From assembly GCA_016187415.1 (NCBI GenBank), contig JACPJT010000004.1, positions 169,392-233,391 on the forward strand: a stretch of DNA of 64,000 bases, written 5' to 3'. Origin of the DNA: Candidatus Aenigmatarchaeota archaeon (lineage in GTDB: Archaea > Aenigmatarchaeota > Aenigmatarchaeia > CG10238-14 > SCSR01). Position numbers and translations under genes: made by a program. The notes under the pieces were generated by a model, which was not told where the DNA came from, ran no database searches, and saw nothing but the letters and a program-made list of their open reading frames with translations. This document shows, in pieces, positions 1,226 to 16,348 of this stretch (the stretch's first letter is position 1; each line of letters begins with the position of its first letter).

Positions 1226-4200
1226 TTATCCTGTCCTAAAGATATTCGCAGCGTATATCTGCTGGCTGTCTGCCCCGTTTGTCAAATATGCATTGGCGAA
1301 TACCGGCGGTGCGAATCCTGAAGCGGAAGGCCAGCTGGTCAATTGTCCCGGACCGATGTTGAATAGTCCGCATCCACCTGGACCGACTTTGACATCTGTA
1401 CCAGTCGCGTTTGTATTGTTCATCAATTCATATACCGTAAGCGTCTTGACTGTGCCGCCTTGGGACCAGTCTTGGCTTGTAACATTATTGACAACCATTG
1501 ATGTTAACGGTGTTGGCGGATTTCCAGCGAATGTCTGGCCGCATACTGATATTGTAACATTCTGCGTCGCATTCCTGACATTTATTACGCCGCTCTGGAA
1601 GTTGTCGCTTTTGTAAATAAGGATGGTCTGATTATTAGCGCTGGTGCTGCCGGTGGTGGTGTTAGGAGTTATCCAAGCCACTAGATAATTAGTTCCAGAT
1701 AAACTGTATGTTTGGTTGGTGAATTGCGCCGATCCCGGTGCTCCAGGAGTACTTGTTGTAGGAGAATTGAAATTCATCGCGAACTTTGTGTCGGTTGTAT
1801 TGTATTCAACATACAAGGTACCGTCAGCTGTTGTTGCGGTACCATTAAACGCCGCAGTTGAAGACGCCATTGCACCTGTACCACTGGCGTTATTGTAAAG
1901 TGTGACTCTGTATATGCCATTTCCATTGACTACATTCGTATAGGCGTTGAATGCCCTAGCCTCGAAAAATGTTGCGCTGCTAAAGTCAGCCGCGTCTTGC
2001 GTGCCGCTTATCGTTGTGTTCCAAAACGCCACGAAATTGCCTGACGTAGTGACATTAAGAGTTATGAAAGCTACTCCATTGGCATCTGTTGTTGAACTAT
2101 TTGCTATATAACCTGTTCCTGGAGTTAATTTACCTGTAAATCCGAATCCTCCGTTCTTGCCGGAATTCTGCTGGCCAACTCCTTTAATGCTAATCGGCGC
2201 GCCAGATTGGAATGTTGGATTACTGGCGCTTCCCAATGCTATCACATAAGGTATTGTAAAGTTCGTGTTTTTCTGGTGCGATCCACCGTAGCTTTGTACA
2301 AATGACCCTTGTGGCGCCAACGAATTCTTTGTGGTGTTCACGACAGTGAAGTAGCCGCAGTTCTGTATTTCCCATAAGTATACGCCACCTGTTCCGCCAG
2401 CAGCTGTGATATTTCTTTGGGACGAGTTCAATATTACTATGGTGCCTGCCGGAGATGAACTGCTTGTCTCATTAAGTACAACTGTATCATAAGTCCCTGC
2501 TGTGTTTCTGTCGATTACCATTACTTTTGTGAGTCTGTCTGTTACATTGATAGGTATTTTCGTAGGCTGCCCCATTCCATATCGTGTCGAGTTGAACTCG
2601 TTCTTCACGCATACATTCCCGCCTACAGAATTGACACTGTAATTCACAGCGAGGAAAGTGATGTTCCAGCTTCCAAATGCCGTGCTGCTTACATTTCCTC
2701 TAGGATCATTTGTTCCATTGTACTGTATGCCGTATCCATCAAATGGCGAACCATTTGACTGGTCACCAACGCCTTCCTGAGAAGGAATGACTATATTGTA
2801 CTTGGCGACACTCAACCCAAGAGGCACGGTCACTTGACCGAAACCGGATGTGCCGTTCGTCGACGCGTTCACAGTTATTGTCAGCATAGCAAATCCTTTC
2901 TTGACGGTAGTTGGTATGACATAACTTATATTCCATCTTTCGAATGGACCGCCTTGACCAAAACTGAAACTAGATGAGTTGGCTGTGTAATTCCATCCGT
3001 CGCTCAGCAAAGTTGCATTAACGCCAGTTAATTGTGTCAGATCGCCTTCCCATGGTCTGCCTACGGATATGTTGACTAGTGTGTTGTTTGCTCCCGAATA
3101 ATACGTGCTGTTCCACTCGCCACCGACACCGGTATTGTAAGTTCCATTGGCCTGTATATCTATAATTGTACTCGTAACCGAACCTACGGAAACCGAACCG
3201 AAACCGAAGCTTTCTGGGAATGCATTAAATGGCACCACCATAAACCCGCCGTGTCCTGTATCGCTGAGCAGGCTTGTGGTTCCTGTTACTCCAGCCGTCA
3301 ATGAAACTCTGACATCAAAGAATCCTGTCGGCCATTGCGTCAAGGCGACACCGCCTGCAGAAAAGTTCTGCGGGTATAACAGCAAAGTCGCGTTCATCGT
3401 GCTTGATGTGTTAGTGAAAGTCACCTGCAATGGTGTGTTGTTGACTAGAATCTTCATAGATCCTGTGGACGGGTTAAAGTTGAATATTTTTGTGACGCTC
3501 AAGACGCTTGATGTGTTTATCAACGAGCCTGTCATGTTTGTAGTGTTCGACAAAGTAAGGTTCAATCCCGAACTTGGCGATACAAAGAATCCCATGCTTG
3601 ATGTGCTGCCGATTGTTGTTATCTGCGGGAATCCTATGTTCAGATTCTTGCAGCTGAAGAATCCTGGCACGCCTGCTGAAACATTTTTATAAGTTGCATT
3701 CAAAATCATAAAGTAATCGCCAGAGAAGCTGTAACTAACAGGACTGAATGTGACATTGGCTGTCAGTGTTCCCGAACTGCTGCTTGCAGTTGAACCGGCT
3801 ATGCTTAGGAATGAACTTACATCCTTTCCGCTCTCTGCTTCCCTTGCCTGCAATACACCGACTATAGTGGCACCCTGCGCGGCAACATTCGTAGCTGCAT
3901 CCTGAACCATGCCGTTAAATGTCTGTGTACCCGAACACAGCATGCCACTTCCACCCTGCGGACCGCCTTCTTTTGATCCGGCACCCGCTCCTCCCGGACC
4001 CCCTCCCACAGAAATATCCTGTGTCGACATGCCGCCCATCAAATAATTAGCTACTATGAATGCATTGCCTGTCGTTGCCTGTCCACTGACAGTAGCTTGA
4101 AGTTTAATTAAAAGTGGTCCAAGCATGCTACTTGGTATTACCATATTTATTGTAGGGTCTGTTGATGTTGGGTTGTCTCCATTCACACTGGTTTGAGTCA

Positions 4201-5776
4201 CGTTTGTGGTTTCATTGGTGCCTCCTGTGAATTGCATCGGCAAAATAGAAGTAACTGTAAAGCTCGTTATATTCTGAGGTGTAATCGATGTGCCATCTGT
4301 GGTATTAACCGCCTTTAATGATATTGTCAAGTTGGAACCCGGCGCAACAACTTGCATGAAGTCGTCTTCACCGCCCAAGGATATGACTGGCGTAGCTTTT
4401 AAGAAAACACCCTGTATGGAGAAAAACCCTTCTATAACATGCGACTCTGATCCGAGAGTTACATTTACCCTTGCCCTATAAACACCGCTGGTTGACAGAT
4501 TGCTGGCTCCTGTACTATTGCCAAGTTTTATCGAACACAAACTCCCGGATGGTGTCGTTGTCAGGAGGAACGAATAAGCATAAACCGTGTTAAGCACTGA
4601 AGTGCCGTTGGCGAAAGAAAGATCTGAAAGTGTATAGTTGGAGGCTGGGCAAGTCGATTGAATCATTGTGCTTCCGTCTGTCAGGTTTATAGAAACTATG
4701 TCCATTATGAAAGTCGAATTTGGCTTGAAAGAACCCTGTCCTCCCCATTCAAAGAAAAAGTTTTTCTGCGGCTGCAGGCTTGCTGTAAATCTCTGGGTAT
4801 TAAAGATACCATTGCTTATTACAGTCGACCCGCTAATCGTGGCTGTTATTTTTATTTTATACGACCCAGATGCGGATGTGTCGGTAAATGTATTGTTATA
4901 TGATCCTACAGTAGTCGGATGCGCGGATAATGTGATGGATGACGATACTGTTCCATTCGGGTATGTGACAACCGCAGTTACAGTGGCTCCAGTCACAGGA
5001 GTTCCGCTGGTATCCCTCACCTTTGCGAGAATATTGACAGTAGAGCTCGGGGAGAAAAACGATGATACTTCATCCGACGTGCTTAATGATTGTACTGCCA
5101 CTACATAATTCGAGCCGACCCCGAAAGTAGAAACAAGGGCACCGTTATCTACTACAATGGCATAAGTCCCAGCCGATGCACCTGATGGCACTGTGATGTT
5201 GAACTGTATCAAACCGTTTGAATCGGTTGCATTTGTGTCGTTAACAATCGTCCATGTTGTCTGGTTTGCACCGTTAGCAGCATACACATTCACCTGAGGA
5301 AGCACACCTTGCAATGCAGTCGTTCCGTTCTTCAAAGTTATGTTTATCGTGAAAGTTGTCCCAGCCACAAATGGCGGGAATTTTCCTGTATATGCTACAC
5401 TGCTTGACGAAGCCGTTTCGTTTGCGACTTGAATTGTAAATGCCTTGTTGATAAGGGATGATGAATTGGTAAATATCGTCAAGTTATAAATGCCAACTGT
5501 TGACGGCGCTGTTACGCTTATATTGAACAAGCCAGAAGCGGGTGTTACATTATAATTCCAATTGCTGCTGGTGTTTGCGGTGACATTTATTCCAGATATT
5601 GTATCAGAAGTGGTTGTGTTGCCTATGCTTCCTGTGACGTTAATCACTGCGCCGGGTTGCACTACTGGATTTACAGAGACATTGAGATAAGTCGATGCGA
5701 ATGCGATGTTTACTAAGAAGAGTACCGAAAATACTGCAACTAACGGTAAAATTAAATTTCTCCCCACGTATGTCAA
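1226..5776 (-). CDS. Large secreted surface/S-layer-like glycoprotein (1516 aa, beta-rich Ig-like modules)
   Basis: N-terminal signal peptide, Thr/Ser/Asn/Gly-rich, very many N-x-S/T sequons, no C-terminal TM helix. Confidence 0.75.
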   Translation of the reverse strand: MTYVGRNLILPLVAVFSVLFLVNIAFASTYLNVSVNPVVQPGAVINVTGSIGNTTTSDTISGINVTANTSSNWNYNVTPASGLFNISVTAPSTVGIYNLTIFTNSSSLINKAFTIQVANETASSSSVAYTGKFPPFVAGTTFTINITLKNGTTALQGVLPQVNVYAANGANQTTWTIVNDTNATDSNGLIQFNITVPSGASAGTYAIVVDNGALVSTFGVGSNYVVAVQSLSTSDEVSSFFSPSSTVNILAKVRDTSGTPVTGATVTAVVTYPNGTVSSSITLSAHPTTVGSYNNTFTDTSASGSYKIKITATISGSTVISNGIFNTQRFTASLQPQKNFFFEWGGQGSFKPNSTFIMDIVSINLTDGSTMIQSTCPASNYTLSDLSFANGTSVLNTVYAYSFLLTTTPSGSLCSIKLGNSTGASNLSTSGVYRARVNVTLGSESHVIEGFFSIQGVFLKATPVISLGGEDDFMQVVAPGSNLTISLKAVNTTDGTSITPQNITSFTVTSILPMQFTGGTNETTNVTQTSVNGDNPTSTDPTINMVIPSSMLGPLLIKLQATVSGQATTGNAFIVANYLMGGMSTQDISVGGGPGGAGAGSKEGGPQGGSGMLCSGTQTFNGMVQDAATNVAAQGATIVGVLQAREAESGKDVSSFLSIAGSTASSSSGTLTANVTFSPVSYSFSGDYFMILNATYKNVSAGVPGFFSCKNLNIGFPQITTIGSTSSMGFFVSPSSGLNLTLSNTTNMTGSLINTSSVLSVTKIFNFNPSTGSMKILVNNTPLQVTFTNTSSTMNATLLLYPQNFSAGGVALTQWPTGFFDVRVSLTAGVTGTTSLLSDTGHGGFMVVPFNAFPESFGFGSVSVGSVTSTIIDIQANGTYNTGVGGEWNSTYYSGANNTLVNISVGRPWEGDLTQLTGVNATLLSDGWNYTANSSSFSFGQGGPFERWNISYVIPTTVKKGFAMLTITVNASTNGTSGFGQVTVPLGLSVAKYNIVIPSQEGVGDQSNGSPFDGYGIQYNGTNDPRGNVSSTAFGSWNITFLAVNYSVNSVGGNVCVKNEFNSTRYGMGQPTKIPINVTDRLTKVMVIDRNTAGTYDTVVLNETSSSSPAGTIVILNSSQRNITAAGGTGGVYLWEIQNCGYFTVVNTTKNSLAPQGSFVQSYGGSHQKNTNFTIPYVIALGSASNPTFQSGAPISIKGVGQQNSGKNGGFGFTGKLTPGTGYIANSSTTDANGVAFITLNVTTSGNFVAFWNTTISGTQDAADFSSATFFEARAFNAYTNVVNGNGIYRVTLYNNASGTGAMASSTAAFNGTATTADGTLYVEYNTTDTKFAMNFNSPTTSTPGAPGSAQFTNQTYSLSGTNYLVAWITPNTTTGSTSANNQTILIYKSDNFQSGVINVRNATQNVTISVCGQTFAGNPPTPLTSMVVNNVTSQDWSQGGTVKTLTVYELMNNTNATGTDVKVGPGGCGLFNIGPGQLTSWPSASGFAPPVFANAYLTNGADSQQIYAANIFRTG

Positions 5777-8302: not shown

Positions 8303-9367
8303 CTAATTCGTAGAGTTTTTCGGTGTTGGTTGTCCGTTAACATCAAAATCGGCCAAGTTGTTGTCAGTATCCGCGGTAACTGACTTTCTTTGCAGACTAC
8401 TTCCCGAATCGGGCGGTATTGCAGGTGAATTTTCAAAAACATATGCAGGATTACCCCATCCGACAGCGTCAATCCTTCCGTTTTTAGCGTCTTCGCTCGT
8501 CTTGGTCCTTGGATCGAACGGGAAGACCGCAATCGAACCGTTGTTACTGATTTGCCCCAGAGAATACGGGCTTCCGCTAGATGTCAGCACGGTCCAATCC
8601 GAATTGCTCGTGTTGAAAATGTTTATCAAAAAGAACTTTCCGTGGCTCAGGATTGTTGCATTCGGAAACGCCCAGTTCCTGTATGTGTTGTTCCAGTCCC
8701 GGCTTGAAGAAAAATATGACAAATACCATCCTGTAACATTTACATCTGCGGCGGTTGGGTTGTACAATTCCACAAACTCGTTCGGCGCATTTTGCACCTC
8801 ATATACGATTACATGGGACAATGTTTGAGTTGTTTGATCCGATGTTGTATTCGTTGCGGTTGTTGTCTGGTTTGTTGTGACGCTCTGATTACTTGGAGAT
8901 TGTGTCTGGGACGATGTTGACGGTTGCGTCTGCTGCACAGTAGCAGGAATAATTATTGGACACTGACCGCAATCATCTACGCACGAAGAACAATTTTCAA
9001 CGGGTTCGCATATGCTATTTCCGCAACAGTCCTTAACTACTCTGCTCAAGCAATTGCCGGATGCACAAACATTCACAGCACATGTACTTGGACTACCCCA
9101 ACATTCCTTTGAGATGCCGTTTACAGGAGTATGCGAGCACAGGCTGTTGCTTGTCTCATTGCACCAATCGTCAGTGCAGGGATTTTTATCGTCGCATGTC
9201 GCTGGGCATTCCGTATCGCTTGAGGCATTGTTAGATGCATACTCATCAGAACTATTGGAGATACTGGATGAAACAAAATAGCCGGTAGGATTGAACTGCA
9301 CGAAAAGCGCAGAAATGCCTACAGTCAAAAGTATGGCTGCTGGTATGACCAAATAACTGATTTTCAT
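8303..9367 (-). CDS. Secreted/anchored protein with Cys-rich repeat region and lamin-tail domain
   Basis: CDDKNPCTDDWC and CCGNSICEPVENCSSCVDDC repeats, Thr/Ser/Gln linker, VIVYEV...EFVELYNPTAADVNVTGWYL (LTD). Confidence 0.75.
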   Translation of the reverse strand: MKISYLVIPAAILLTVGISALFVQFNPTGYFVSSSISNSSDEYASNNASSDTECPATCDDKNPCTDDWCNETSNSLCSHTPVNGISKECWGSPSTCAVNVCASGNCLSRVVKDCCGNSICEPVENCSSCVDDCGQCPIIIPATVQQTQPSTSSQTQSPSNQSVTTNQTTTATNTTSDQTTQTLSHVIVYEVQNAPNEFVELYNPTAADVNVTGWYLSYFSSSRDWNNTYRNWAFPNATILSHGKFFLINIFNTSNSDWTVLTSSGSPYSLGQISNNGSIAVFPFDPRTKTSEDAKNGRIDAVGWGNPAYVFENSPAIPPDSGSSLQRKSVTADTDNNLADFDVNGQPTPKNSTN

Positions 9368-10084: not shown

Positions 10085-11128
10085 TTAATTTTCATATAAC
10101 TTGAATAGTTTTTCTTTTTTTCGCAGAAGAGTGAAATTAACAGTATCTCTAAATCTAAGTATATTCTCCTTTCCATAAATGTTAACATAATAAACGTAAT
10201 ACGAATAACGTCGAGGTGATTTGAAATTTTTGTAATACTTTTTGAAACTTGTGTTTATTCTTAATTTGGTTAACAGTTTGGTTACGCCTAATAATCCTTT
10301 TCCATTTACACTGTCACATGTAATGAAGTTTCTTGCGACACATCCTTCACTATCAAAAAAACCTCTCAAAAAAGAAGAAATTATATCTTTATTCCTACTC
10401 GTCATTATTATTTGAGGAACACGCCATTTTCTTACTCCAAATTTCCCAATCGATAGCAAATCATTACAAATAAACTCAGGTGAAATGTAAGCTGCAAATG
10501 TATTTCTTTTGGGACGAAAGTTATAATTAAAACCAAGTCCATATACATCCTTAAAACATTTAATAAAGAATTTTATGAAATCTTCATCTTTTTTATTGAT
10601 TTCCAATTGAACAAAATCTTCATTAATGTGGCCATCCCCACAAAGAACTCCAAGAATGTACGCCTTTTCAGATGTTATTTTTTTAAAAGGTTTTGGTGGG
10701 ATGATTAATCTAAAATTACGTAAGAAAGTCTTAACCCTTTTTGTGTTCATGGATTCTTTTTTATTCCTCAAGACAACATTGTACTTAGTTAGCCATTTCC
10801 GAACAGTATTGCCTACTACATTAAATTTTTTACTTATCTCTGTGGGGCTCATACCTTTTTCCAAATAAAGGTTTAGTAAAATATCCCTTTTAGGTGGTTT
10901 TCTAGGTTTGAACCAAGTTGACTTGTTTCTACCAGGTATTCTATCATTATATAACCAATTCGAAATTGTAATCTCTGGTATCAATATTTTGTGTCTTGAT
11001 TTAATCAATCTTGAAATAAGTCTAGAACCAATCTTCTCTTTATTATATAACTGGACTGCAATTCTATGAAATTGCGATTTCTCTTTATCTGATATTTCTG
11101 CATACCTCAACATATATAGCAATAGCAT
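10085..11128 (-). mobile_element. Free-standing LAGLIDADG homing endonuclease with N-terminal HTH
   Basis: Two LAGLIDADG helices (YILGVLCGDGHI, FLRGFFDSEGCV); AT-rich; not inside another gene. Confidence 0.85.
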
Positions 11129-14056: not shown

Positions 14057-15121
14057 CTAATAGGTTTCATGTAATTGTCTTATTTCCTTAATAATTTTTT
14101 TTCTCAACTTGTAGGTATTCCCGTGCATGACATAACCGAACCAGCCTTCAAGCATCTTGCTTGCCTTGTCGCCAATTGTCCCCCCCCCATTGACGCATAG
14201 ATTGTTTAGCTTCCTTTCAAATTTATCCAGATTGCTCTTTCTTGGAAGTTTGTAGTGGTAGAACACCCTGAACCCCAGAAGGGTCACGCCATTGTGCAAC
14301 GGGACAATCTTTGACTTGCCCGGATGGAGCTCGAGATTTAGTCTCTGCTTTAAAAAATTAGTTATCAGCCATTTGTATAACAGAAGCCTTTCTTTTGAGT
14401 CGTGCAATATGACGAAATCGTCAACATAACGGATATAGTATTTTGCTTTCAGGTTGTGCTTGACATAATAGTCCAATTCGTTCAGATATATGTTGGCGAA
14501 GAACTGGCTTGTCAGATTGCCTAGAGGCATTCCCTTATTTGATATTTTAAAATCATAATTACCAAGGATTGTTTTTATCAACTGCAGGGTATTCTTGTCT
14601 TCTATTTTCTTTCCTATAATTTTCATCAGGATTCCTATATCGATCGTGTCGAAGTAGTGTCTGATATCGGCTTTTAATGCATATCCGACAACCATATTCT
14701 TATCCTTGGCGTTCCTTGTTAACCGACCGTTGTTTGCAACTTTCCTCTTGAACTCATCGAATCGTTTCAATCCTGCATGAACTCCCTTGTTTTTCCTGTT
14801 GGCATAAGTGTCGTGAATAAAGATTTTTTCGAATATAGGCTCTATTAAGTTACATATTGCGTGATGTATCACCCTGTCTCTGAAAGCTGAAGCATGAATC
14901 ACGCGTGTTTTTGGGTCTCTGACAATGAATCTCTTTAATGTTCTGGGTTTGTATGTTTGTGTTTTCAGTTCTTGTTTTAATTTTGTTAATTCGTCATCCA
15001 AGTTGGATTCAAACTCTTGTACATACCACTTCTTGCTTTTCCCTTTCTTGGCTTTCTTGAACGCTAGTCTGAGATTTTCAAAGGAGCACAATTTGTCGAA
15101 TAGATTGTTATAGGTTTTCAT
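14057..15121 (-). CDS. DGR-type reverse transcriptase
   Basis: FRDRVIHHA, KADIRHYFDTID, GMPLGNLTSQFFANIYL (SQ signature), YIRYVDDF; 354 aa with no endonuclease or maturase extension; adjacent TR/VR pair. Confidence 0.95.
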   Translation of the reverse strand: MKTYNNLFDKLCSFENLRLAFKKAKKGKSKKWYVQEFESNLDDELTKLKQELKTQTYKPRTLKRFIVRDPKTRVIHASAFRDRVIHHAICNLIEPIFEKIFIHDTYANRKNKGVHAGLKRFDEFKRKVANNGRLTRNAKDKNMVVGYALKADIRHYFDTIDIGILMKIIGKKIEDKNTLQLIKTILGNYDFKISNKGMPLGNLTSQFFANIYLNELDYYVKHNLKAKYYIRYVDDFVILHDSKERLLLYKWLITNFLKQRLNLELHPGKSKIVPLHNGVTLLGFRVFYHYKLPRKSNLDKFERKLNNLCVNGGGTIGDKASKMLEGWFGYVMHGNTYKLRKKIIKEIRQLHETY

Positions 15122-15450
15122 AAAAATCCTGGGCCATCTGGGTTATTCAAAACAGAACCCCTGTTGGAGTTCAGGTCTGTTGAAGATTTCCTGTTCTCAG
15201 GCTCCCTGTTCGAATTCAGGTTCGGCCTTTCGCGACTCACATTCTCACGGTCCCTGAAGTTCCAGATGAGAGCTTGAAGTTAGCCTAATCCACCAAACTT
15301 GCACTGCGATTTTAGTATTCGTTCATCACTACTAACTATCACCGCTGTATTTCATGGCTAAACGGAAAAAGCCCTAATGCACTATGGAAAGGCATGTAGC
15401 CCAGACTTTGCTGTCATCTGCAGTCAAGCACAGCCCAGGAATATAGAATT
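15122..15450 (-). ncRNA. Putative DGR RNA (about 170-nt leader + TR + 20-nt spacer before RT); ends approximate
   Basis: No ORF of 60 aa or more; TATA-like TTTAAAT at 15455-15461; leader segments 15433-15440 and 15400-15405 are complementary to spacer segments 15127-15134 and 15137-15142. Confidence 0.65.
15142..15273 (-). repeat. DGR template repeat (TR), 132 nt
   Basis: Aligns to VR 15917-16015 over 99 nt with 15 mismatches, all at TR adenines on the coding strand; rich in AAC/AAT; two extra segments of 15 and 18 nt. Confidence 0.95.
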
Positions 15451-15475
15451 GTGAATTTAAATATTAAAATCTGAT

Positions 15476-16318
15476 TTATATTTCTGTAATAGGTACGCCT
15501 GCTCTTTTAGCCAACTCTTGCAATCTTTCGTATTGCGTGCGTGGCACTCTAACATTGACAAAATCTTCTGCTTCTCGGCTAGGCATCGTCGGCCATGCGA
15601 GAATTCCGCTTGATCTCACCCAACAACTTTTCCATATGCCGTCTCTTAATCCCCTGTAGGCATCTCTCACTTGTTTCTCTTTCAAGCCCTCTCCGCTTTC
15701 GAATCTTTTAACCTCGTCTCCCATCCACTGTTTGCTCGGTTCTTCTGGCTGGACGAATGCGGCTATTCTATTCACATCTTGTTCGTCAGAATTTACCAAA
15801 CCGTTCTTTTGAACGTATAATTGCGTCTCCCACAAATCTTCGCCTCTTAGTGCCACTTCAGGCTGGACGAAATAGCCAATGCCAGGTATTTTTATACGGC
15901 CTTCGCCTTCGGCGACGCTACCCAAAACAGAACCCCTGTCGGAGTACCCGTACTCAGGCTCCCTGCCCGAATCCAGGTCCGGCCTCTCACGGCCCCCGAA
16001 GCCCCAGATGAGAGCCCTTAATCCTTCATATAATTCTGGATTTGAATTTGTCCAGACATAAGTATTATCTGCTTTTAATGGTTTTACTGCATCTCGAGGC
16101 ACCAATAAATTCATCATTTCAGGCGTTATCGTTCCGTTTTGTCTCACCCAATTTACTTGTTTGAATGGATTGTCCATGCCCTCTAAATTAATCCTATAAT
16201 CCCTGTTTGCCCTGTTGACATCATCTACTCTATAACTAGAAATTATGATAGGGCTTCCATTTCTTGGAAGTTCCGCGCCTGTTATTCTTGGTGAGTATGA
16301 TTGAACAGCCGTTGCCAT
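15476..16318 (-). CDS. DGR target (variable) protein, probable CLec-like domain with a C-terminal extension
   Basis: Contains the VR in frame (ALIWGFGGRERPDLDSGREPEYGYSDRGSVLGS); preceding YVW...P...GL pattern resembles DGR CLec targets. Confidence 0.9.
   Translation of the reverse strand: MATAVQSYSPRITGAELPRNGSPIIISSYRVDDVNRANRDYRINLEGMDNPFKQVNWVRQNGTITPEMMNLLVPRDAVKPLKADNTYVWTNSNPELYEGLRALIWGFGGRERPDLDSGREPEYGYSDRGSVLGSVAEGEGRIKIPGIGYFVQPEVALRGEDLWETQLYVQKNGLVNSDEQDVNRIAAFVQPEEPSKQWMGDEVKRFESGEGLKEKQVRDAYRGLRDGIWKSCWVRSSGILAWPTMPSREAEDFVNVRVPRTQYERLQELAKRAGVPITEI
15903..15915 (-). promoter_or_regulatory. DGR retrohoming hairpin with GAA triloop
   Basis: TCGCC-GAA-GGCGA on the coding strand, 1 nt after the VR 3' end; matches the GRA-loop hairpins described for archaeal DGRs. 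Confidence 0.75.
15917..16015 (-). repeat. DGR variable repeat (VR), 99 nt / 33 codons
   Basis: 13 A>G and 2 A>T differences versus TR; no mismatch at non-A positions. Confidence 0.95.
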
Positions 16319-16333
16319 GATTTAATAGAGTAT

Positions 16334-16348
16334 AGTAAAGGATTTAAA
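16334..16348 (-). promoter_or_regulatory. TATA-containing promoter motif TTTAAATCCTTTACT of the DGR target
   Basis: Identical 15-mer at the same distance from the ATG upstream of gene 46338-47102. Confidence 0.75.

Follow-up and report, generated by a model that had tools for sequence, protein, structure and literature searches.

The window analyzed here, a 64,000-nucleotide (64-kb) stretch of contig JACPJT010000004.1 from a Candidatus Aenigmatarchaeota archaeon, carries a genuine diversity-generating retroelement (DGR) of a DPANN (Aenigmarchaeota-like) archaeon, whose template repeat (TR) contains two short segments that are absent from its variable repeat (VR). We consider it fairly probable that this is a working DGR whose TR segments are spliced out, as relaxed bulge-helix-bulge (BHB) mini-introns, before the template is mutagenically copied by the element's reverse transcriptase (RT). 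A broader, joint proposal is one we hold with slightly more credence than doubt: template RNAs of DPANN DGRs would be natural substrates of the tRNA-splicing machinery, with relaxed-BHB mini-introns of 15 to 48 nt in the TR excised and the ends ligated before mutagenic reverse transcription; the VR would be a genomic record of the spliced RNA; and the target protein would have a previously unrecognized, circularly permutable fold, not that of a C-type lectin.

Template repeat segments absent from the variable repeat

The TR (132 nt) can be aligned to the VR (99 nt) only by opening two gaps, one of 15 and one of 18 nt, for sequence found in the TR alone (segments A and B). Gap placements that leave no non-A mismatch give 15 to 17 changed bases among 28 to 30 TR adenines (13 or 14 to G, 2 to T, and 0 or 1 to C). 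Under the placement we favor, with each cut two nucleotides past a helix strand (described below), 15 of 28 adenines are changed (13 to G, 2 to T, and none to C) and all 71 non-A positions are identical; the chance that 15 mismatches would all hit the 28 A sites among 99 is P = 1.7e-10. These are exactly the counts claimed in an earlier, model-generated note on this DNA, and pairwise alignment of 15142-15273 with 15917-16015 placed every mismatch at a TR adenine, with no non-A mismatch emerging. The earlier note listed both intervals correctly but passed over the 33-nt difference in their lengths: the TR and VR are not collinear. Their homology may reach 2 nt further 5′ (TR AAGCTC versus VR GGGCTC), and an A-masked k-mer scan found no second VR in the window.

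Related loci (designated by L numbers) were retrieved with the window RT as the query. TR-only segments occur in 12 of the 15 archaeal loci with a detectable VR and number 22 in total, ranging from 15 to 48 nt; none of the seven complete bacterial DGR loci from the same query (candidate phyla radiation and other) has such segments, and their repeats are collinear (Fisher P of about 0.001). The segments are missing from every VR of two multi-VR loci, L012 of Nanoarchaeota (two VRs) and L016 of Woesearchaeota (three VRs), and VR length is identical in 13 of 13 homologues of the target protein. The segment A motif lies at the same place in L008, L009, L011, and L065, and homologues of segment B are found in Nanoarchaeota (L012) and Woesearchaeota (L016 and L032). 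The TR of L011 lacks segment B and reads like a spliced form.

All 22 segments fit one arrangement, in which one strand of a 4-bp helix is followed by 3 nt, by a hairpin whose length varies, by the second helix strand, and by 3 further nt. Segment A follows it as CGTG (15249-15246), AGA, ATGTGAGT, CGCG (15234-15231), and AAA (as RNA, CGUG-AGA-AUGUGAGU-CGCG-AAA), and segment B as CAGG (15193-15190), AAA, TCT-tcaac-AGA, CCTG (15175-15172), and AAC (as RNA, CAGG-AAA-UCUucaacAGA-CCUG-AAC). The 3-nt spacing is exact, because segment length equals 7 plus the hairpin length in 22 of 22 cases. In register, the central helix is paired in 84 of 88 cells and the inner hairpin forms 58 of 66 pairs; sliding one strand lowers these counts to 10 to 39 of 88 and 20 to 31 of 66, respectively. 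Changes among loci are compensatory in the helix of segment A (CGUG/CGCG, CACG/CGUG, GGUG/CAUC, and CGCG/CGCG), in the helix of segment B (CAGG/CCUG, CUCG/CGGG, and CUCG/CGAG), and in the inner hairpin of segment B (UCU/AGA and UUC/GAA). The cut offsets that the VR sequences permit intersect at a single value, 2 nt past each helix strand. At this offset the helix is perfect in 18 of the 22 segments (mean of 1.7 and maximum of 7 in shuffles) and has at least three of four pairs in all 22. For segment B, the helix, the 3-nt bulge, and the hairpin are recovered in the minimum-energy fold. We also considered a kink-turn and rejected it, because inspection found no tandem G-A pairs after the bulge.

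Routes by which the segments may be lost

The target of the archaeal splicing endonuclease is a 4-bp helix between two 3-nt bulges. In a pre-tRNA, this helix takes in the first two bases of the anticodon, and cleavage falls at 37/38, which leaves two nucleotides of the bulge on the 5′ exon (PMC4090602). The predicted segment cuts, two nucleotides past each helix strand, coincide with this canonical splicing endonuclease position. The half-motif at the 5′ cut (helix, bulge, and inner helix; HBh′) is intact. No single register fits the exon-exon helix at the 3′ cut, the best giving 38 to 41 of 66 pairs, with about 25 expected by chance; in segment B, the outer helix is GAG/CUC across a 2×2 loop. 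A strict BHB with a regular exon-exon helix is thus unsupported by outer-helix pairing, and the weakness of this helix points to a relaxed HBh′ or bulge-helix-loop form. The relaxed form is cut efficiently only by (αβ)2 and ε2 endonucleases, known from Nanoarchaeum and ARMAN (PMC6379350). A splicing endonuclease gene was not seen in the 64-kb window, and we found nothing in the searchable literature that links BHB motifs or the splicing endonuclease to DGRs. The predicted splicing mechanism is well supported by the comparison among loci, and the TR RNA is probably spliced before it is copied.

As we envision it, an RNA would be made that carries the RT-16 element (a structured RNA described below), the TR, and probably the RT message. 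Its 5′ end would pair just 3′ of the TR and a box within RT-16 would pair with the TR 3′ end, so that the structured RNA would adjoin the site where cDNA starts; this role would be that of the downstream spacer in the Bordetella phage DGR, with the order permuted. The 15- and 18-nt segments would fold as relaxed BHB (HBh′) motifs and be cut two nucleotides past each 4-bp helix strand, most likely by the host tRNA-splicing endonuclease, and a host RNA ligase would rejoin the ends. The RT would copy the spliced 99-nt template, misreading adenines mostly as G, and the cDNA would replace the VR, guided by the IMH (initiation of mutagenic homing) sequence and a GAA-loop hairpin. The sequences themselves show the DGR parts, the confinement of differences to adenines, the lack of the segments in every VR, and their conserved geometry; the agent and timing of segment removal, the contacts for priming, and the element's present activity are inferred.

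Several points weigh against the scheme. We infer splicing solely from comparison of DNA sequences. By helix counts, an offset of 3 nt nearly equals the offset of 2 nt, the outcome that only 2 nt is permitted hangs on one L010 segment with a helix of three of four pairs, and three to four segments have only three of four helix pairs. The expected outer helix next to the 3′ cut is poorly and irregularly formed. Neither of the two window motifs folds with better energy than shuffles do (z of about −0.6), such energies being uninformative for motifs this short. The 22 segments represent about five homologous sites and are therefore not independent. No Avd protein was found, although the Bordetella phage system needs Avd. 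Finally, the VR of L064 (approximately 530-560) keeps a homologue of the 15-nt TR-only segment of L010 (5849-5863); the retained segment has A-to-G changes, its helix has three of four pairs in both L064 and L010, and the two loci may represent a case of exon/intron switching.

The best surviving alternative, which we nonetheless regard as unlikely, is that the motifs stay folded, perhaps as RT-binding elements, and that the RT skips across them with no cleavage of the RNA. Structure in an RNA template can cause specific deletions by RTs (PMC5737552), and TR/VR length differences elsewhere have been ascribed to template slippage near AAC (PMC5758913). Such jumps would be aided by the short repeats at both window junctions (GAA...GAA at segment B), and the motifs are confined to the clade that has RT-16. 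However, L012 and L016 have no junction microhomology, and the RT of L064 evidently reads through a similar segment. Moreover, the piece removed is not a whole hairpin: it comprises the inner hairpin, one strand of the 4-bp helix, and 3 nt, so the landing site would lie inside the structure and the helix would have to be unwound anyway. The symmetric two-nucleotide offset fits a twofold symmetric endonuclease and has no obvious meaning for a polymerase.

We think it rather improbable that the segments are optional exons, with the TR used in both spliced and unspliced forms, or serving longer VRs elsewhere in the genome, to yield loop-length variants of the target. Both window segments are multiples of 3 with no stop codon in the VR frame, and they map to two loops between VR β-strands; the L064 VR retains one such segment, and the VR of a relative, P0134, has 4 additional residues, located near site A. 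Among all segments, 14 of 22 lengths are multiples of 3, but lengths of 16, 25, 28, 28, and 31 nt also occur and would break the frame. A pure in-frame constraint is therefore ruled out, and the notion that all segments are multiples of three fails on L019, L033, and L065. In addition, no VR with segments is present in the window, in the multi-VR loci, or in the 13 homologues. Very improbable, in our estimate, is plain indel drift between the TR and VR of an ordinary DGR, perhaps one no longer active: TR and VR lengths are unequal in about 7% of surveyed DGRs, for which slippage at AAC repeats has been proposed (PMC5758913), but here the 71 non-A positions hold no mismatch, the place and structure of the segments are conserved across DPANN phyla with compensatory changes, and a segment-bearing cDNA would put the segments into the VR at each round, yet no VR has those of its own TR. 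Splicing of relaxed BHB mini-introns thus remains the account we prefer.

Reverse transcriptase, structured RNA, and target protein

The cassette runs on the minus strand in the order target open reading frame (ORF), 36-nt spacer, RT-16, TR, 20-nt spacer, and RT (Table 1). It is chromosomal, lies on a contig of approximately 252 kb, and is flanked by genes for an Lhr-type helicase and thymidylate kinase; named relatives of its target and RT proteins belong to Aenigmarchaeota and other DPANN archaea. The coordinates that the earlier note gave for the RT, TR, and VR all hold, with the VR inside ORF 16318..15476, and ORFs and alignment bear out the minus-strand order of target, TR, and RT. The parts it listed are real, but it missed the conserved RT-16 RNA directly 5′ of the TR. 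Its term "complete" was loose: the target, TR, VR, and RT are present, but the cassette has no Avd, there being no ORF between the target, TR, and RT, and a Pfam search that covered 20 of the window's 25 small non-overlapping ORFs identified no Avd. Avd or an equivalent is not universal among DGRs. In L066, a related RT is directly followed by a 124-amino-acid (aa) DUF7718 protein (1131-1505), a possible accessory factor in that branch; nothing similar lies beside the window RT. AT-rich, TATA-like boxes are found upstream of the target gene and of RT-16.

Table 1. Features of the DGR cassette, in window coordinates
Feature	Position	Strand	Evidence or remark
Target (variable protein) gene, 280 aa	16318..15476	minus	No Pfam family
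VR, 99 nt, target residues A102-S134, IMH-like GGGTAGC end (15923-15917)	16015..15917	minus	Alignment to TR
Hairpin TCGCC-GAA-GGCGA, just 3′ of VR within target gene	15903..15915	minus	
RT-16 RNA (Rfam RF03019), 165-nt match immediately 5′ of TR	15439..15275	minus	88.1 bits
Conserved box GUCUGGGCUA inside RT-16	15406-15397	minus	Can pair with TR 3′ end and IMH* UAACCCAGA
TR, 132 nt, IMH*-like GAATAAC end (15148-15142)	15273..15142	minus	Mismatches to VR at adenines only
TR-only segment A, 15 nt, AATGTGAGTCGCGAA, proposed mini-intron	15243..15229	minus	Absent from VR
TR-only segment B, 18 nt, ATCTTCAACAGACCTGAA, proposed mini-intron	15187..15170	minus	Absent from VR
3′ strand GCCCAGGA of long-range helix closing RT-16 and TR	15127..15134	minus	Partner TCCTGGGC at 15440-15433
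DGR-type RT gene, 354 aa	15121..14057	minus	Pfam RVT_1, phrog_1423

The RT matched Pfam RVT_1 at 7.9e-19 and phrog_1423 at 9e-114. Its best solved relative is 8ub7_A, a 328-aa RT (179 bits) that we presume is probably the Bordetella phage enzyme; group II intron RTs scored 91 bits and retron-type RTs 80 bits. The earlier note had named affiliation with these latter two groups as a finding that would speak against its DGR call, and the scores place the RT elsewhere. The top phage match was the RT of the archaeal virus ANMV-1 (41.6% identical), followed by known DGR phages. The RT contains LGNLTSQ and YVDD, sequences of diagnostic value for DGR-type RTs. That the element is not a DGR at all, its RT being that of a group II intron, retron, or defense system and the repeat a coincidence, is effectively refuted: a group II RT/maturase model is the best-scoring NCBIfam model and some sources call relatives "retron-type," but that model (TIGR04416) reached only 152 bits against a cutoff of 300, 8ub7 scores twice any group II RT, Rfam finds no intron RNA domains, and the element has an adenine-specific repeat, an IMH, and the hairpin. 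A nine-G run (14180-14188, minus strand) that encodes NGGGT within the RT gene is prone to slippage or sequencing error; the frame is intact.

The IMH at the VR 3′ end (GGGTAGC) and the IMH* at the TR 3′ end (GAATAAC) differ, as expected of a DGR, and the contrast of GAAT(A) with GGGT(A) recurs in most related loci. A GAA-triloop hairpin after the IMH is also found in L002, L012, L016, and L017. Both features match those of Nanoarchaeota DGRs, namely a TGGGGT/TGGAAT IMH/IMH* pair and GRA-loop hairpins (PMC4372165). Together with the adenine-only mismatches and the DGR-like RT scores, the IMH/IMH* pair and the GAA-loop hairpin bear out the earlier note's identification of the element as a DGR.

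The claim of a strongly A-to-G-biased mutagenesis was an overreading: the 13 changes to G were counted correctly, but 3 of them (AATAAC to GGTAGC) are the fixed difference between IMH and IMH*, seen in most of the related VRs checked, and the rest fit the spectrum of the clade. The residues encoded by the IMH changes, G133 and S134, are invariant in 13 of 13 target homologues. Outside the IMH, the window VR has 10 G and 2 T, no different from the clade spectrum (P = 0.15). In the clade pool of 21 VRs, adenine was kept at 193 sites and changed to G at 186, to T at 83, and to C at 14 (66% G, 29% T, and 5% C of substitutions). The excess of A-to-G changes is thus partly an artifact, and the clade as a whole has a spectrum rich in G and poor in C; because it was measured on VRs that had already passed selection, it is not a clean enzyme spectrum. 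For the Bordetella phage enzyme in vitro, the shares in sense-strand terms are approximately 34% G, 43% T, and 22% C (PMC7826257).

The RT-16 match covers the full model (positions 1-158) with a score well above the gathering score of 50 bits. RT-16 accompanies the RT in 25 related archaeal loci, in 24 of which it shares the strand of the RT and immediately precedes the TR on the 5′ side; the exception is the metagenomic L038, where it is on the strand opposite the RT (1779-1961). The RT-16 5′ end (TCCTGGGC) pairs with the sequence GCCCAGGA, which precedes the start codon of the RT gene by 6 nt, and an equivalent closing helix of 7 to 13 bp, with compensatory changes, is present in 12 of 17 loci compared. 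The pairing of the box GUCUGGGCUA with the TR 3′ end and IMH* (UAACCCAGA) shows covariation in L013, L015, L017, and L040. The RT-16 5′ strand (15433-15440) has two possible partners: the internal strand of the Rfam model (15397-15410), with which four pairs are noncanonical in the window, and the strand after the TR, with which it forms 8 perfect pairs. That the box stays constant while the other two strands covary suggests alternative conformations. We saw by eye nothing evident of a BHB in the long-range closing helix that might serve excision or circularization. The idea that the TR is translated and coupled to the RT, based on an ATGA overlap in the window, was dropped because L008 is in a different frame. 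Two duplexes are made by the downstream spacer in the Bordetella phage particle, a primer duplex that involves the 3′ end of the TR and another with sequence lying upstream of the TR (bioRxiv 10.1101/2023.10.23.563531); by analogy, the archaeal RNA seems to make both contacts in permuted order. Weinberg et al. (2017) gave no function for RT-16 and proposed a DGR role only for RT-10 (PMC5737381).

The target matches no Pfam or NCBIfam family and has 12 to 13 close homologues among 5.8 billion proteins. These differ mainly at adenine-encoded VR positions, and their hypervariable block (residues 105-131) is of constant length. A profile search recovered 59 relatives, many with the two halves in the opposite order and the VR at the extreme C terminus; in most, such as P0140, P0143, and P0145, the equivalent of residues ∼140-247 comes first and the VR-bearing half last. 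By this comparison, the window target is a circular permutant of a wider family, which explains why its VR is in mid-protein and not at the C terminus as in classical targets. A first structural model, built from 13 sequences, was unusable (predicted local distance difference test [pLDDT] score of 59.7) and was replaced by an AlphaFold (AF2) model built from 40 sequences (pLDDT of 91.9; predicted template modeling score of 0.84). In this model, the VR forms three β-strands (100-106, 114-119, and 128-134), and the two loops that join them are where the TR-only segments fall, one at E111|R112 and the other within Y125. Foldseek searches of the PDB and BFVD with the model returned nothing with E < 0.6 (template modeling scores of ≤0.17 relative to the query), a search that could miss a very divergent domain, and a profile search of PDB sequences gave no match. 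The predicted structure does not support a C-type lectin or FGE-sulfatase-like fold. By eye, the target has no signal peptide or membrane segment, so it may be intracellular.

Residues ∼250-280 of the target (15476-15560) make up a tail that looks like a ribbon-helix-helix DNA-binding motif (Pfam RHH_3, E = 0.0075, below threshold), has small Foldseek matches to CopG-like viral proteins, and is present in only some homologues. Target homologues in other Aenigmarchaeota (L001, 4001-4837; L002-L004; and L005-L007) have no RT within 4 kb and sit among housekeeping genes, those for S6e, S11, RNA polymerase subunit D, and an amino-acid kinase; each is either the remote target of a DGR or an orphaned copy. 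Three of the contigs with such homologues end approximately 220 bp after the gene.

Elsewhere in the window, a free-standing ORF that resembles LAGLIDADG-type homing endonucleases and has an N-terminal helix-turn-helix occupies 10085-11128 (minus strand), two genes downstream of that for the RT; L065 also has a LAGLIDADG ORF near its DGR. Two further minus-strand ORFs probably encode surface proteins: one of 1516 aa with an MG2 (alpha-2-macroglobulin-type) domain (1226-5776) and one of 354 aa with a lamin-tail domain (8303-9367).

Comparison with known systems

DGRs of DPANN archaea are already known, and the element as such is one more member; what makes the locus valuable is the intron-like nature of its TR segments, the position of RT-16, and a target whose fold is unclassified. 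Like the DGRs of Nanoarchaeota (DUSEL4) and other DPANN archaea (PMC4372165), it has an RT of the same clade (the RT of the AAA011-G17 locus, L012, is 63% identical), a GGGT IMH versus a GAAT IMH*, a GRA-triloop hairpin in the target gene, and a cellular rather than viral context; scans of viral contigs gave no match to the RT query and only chance matches to a 14-mer from RT-16. Unlike them, its target belongs to an unrelated family with no C-type lectin match, and its VR lies in mid-protein through circular permutation. The TR-only segments are present in L012 but are not mentioned in PMC4372165, whose text contains none of the words "insertion," "deletion," and "gap." The window target, confidently modeled yet without any known relative in fold, adds to the range of scaffolds that DGRs can vary.

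The window element matches the full Rfam RT-16 model (RF03019), a family defined by proximity to RT genes; the covarying partners of its 5′ strand and GGGCUA box lie 3′ of the TR, outside the model. RT-16, until now an orphan family, thereby gains a place as a structured RNA 5′ of the TR in an archaeal DGR clade.

With the BHB introns of archaeal tRNA, rRNA, and a few mRNAs, the segments share a central helix of 4 bp, a bulge of 3 nt with an inner helix after it, predicted cuts two nucleotides past the helix strands, a small and variable size, and, in this data set, restriction to archaea. They differ in that the host RNA is the template of a retroelement, a class of substrate unreported in the searchable literature, and in that the helix at the predicted 3′ cut is poor (the relaxed HBh′ or bulge-helix-loop type). 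If the segments are indeed endonuclease introns, a retroelement depends on the tRNA-splicing enzymes of its host, which would be a new substrate class for them, and some TR/VR length differences that have been put down to RT slippage would be explained. DGR finders that assume collinear repeats will miscall or miss such elements.

As in the Bordetella phage BPP-1 (mtd-avd-TR-Sp-brt), whose RT is related (it is probably the solved 8ub7, 179 bits), TR-to-VR transfer is adenine specific, the IMH logic is the same, and the VR is followed by a hairpin; a structured RNA likewise seems to pair with the 3′ end of the TR, and sequences on the two sides of the TR seem to form a duplex. Unlike BPP-1, the window element has no Avd, its structured RNA (RT-16) lies 5′ rather than 3′ of the TR, its clade favors G and rarely C (66% G, 29% T, and 5% C, versus about 34/43/22 in vitro), and its TR is interrupted by two segments. 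Guo et al. (2008) reportedly engineered a self-splicing group I intron into the BPP-1 TR and found it lost on transfer to the VR, which is said to show that an RNA intermediate is used. The interruptions in the window TR are, by contrast, natural, tiny, and of a putatively protein-dependent, archaeal type; if they are spliced as we propose, they would be a natural counterpart of that engineered-intron experiment on the RNA intermediate.

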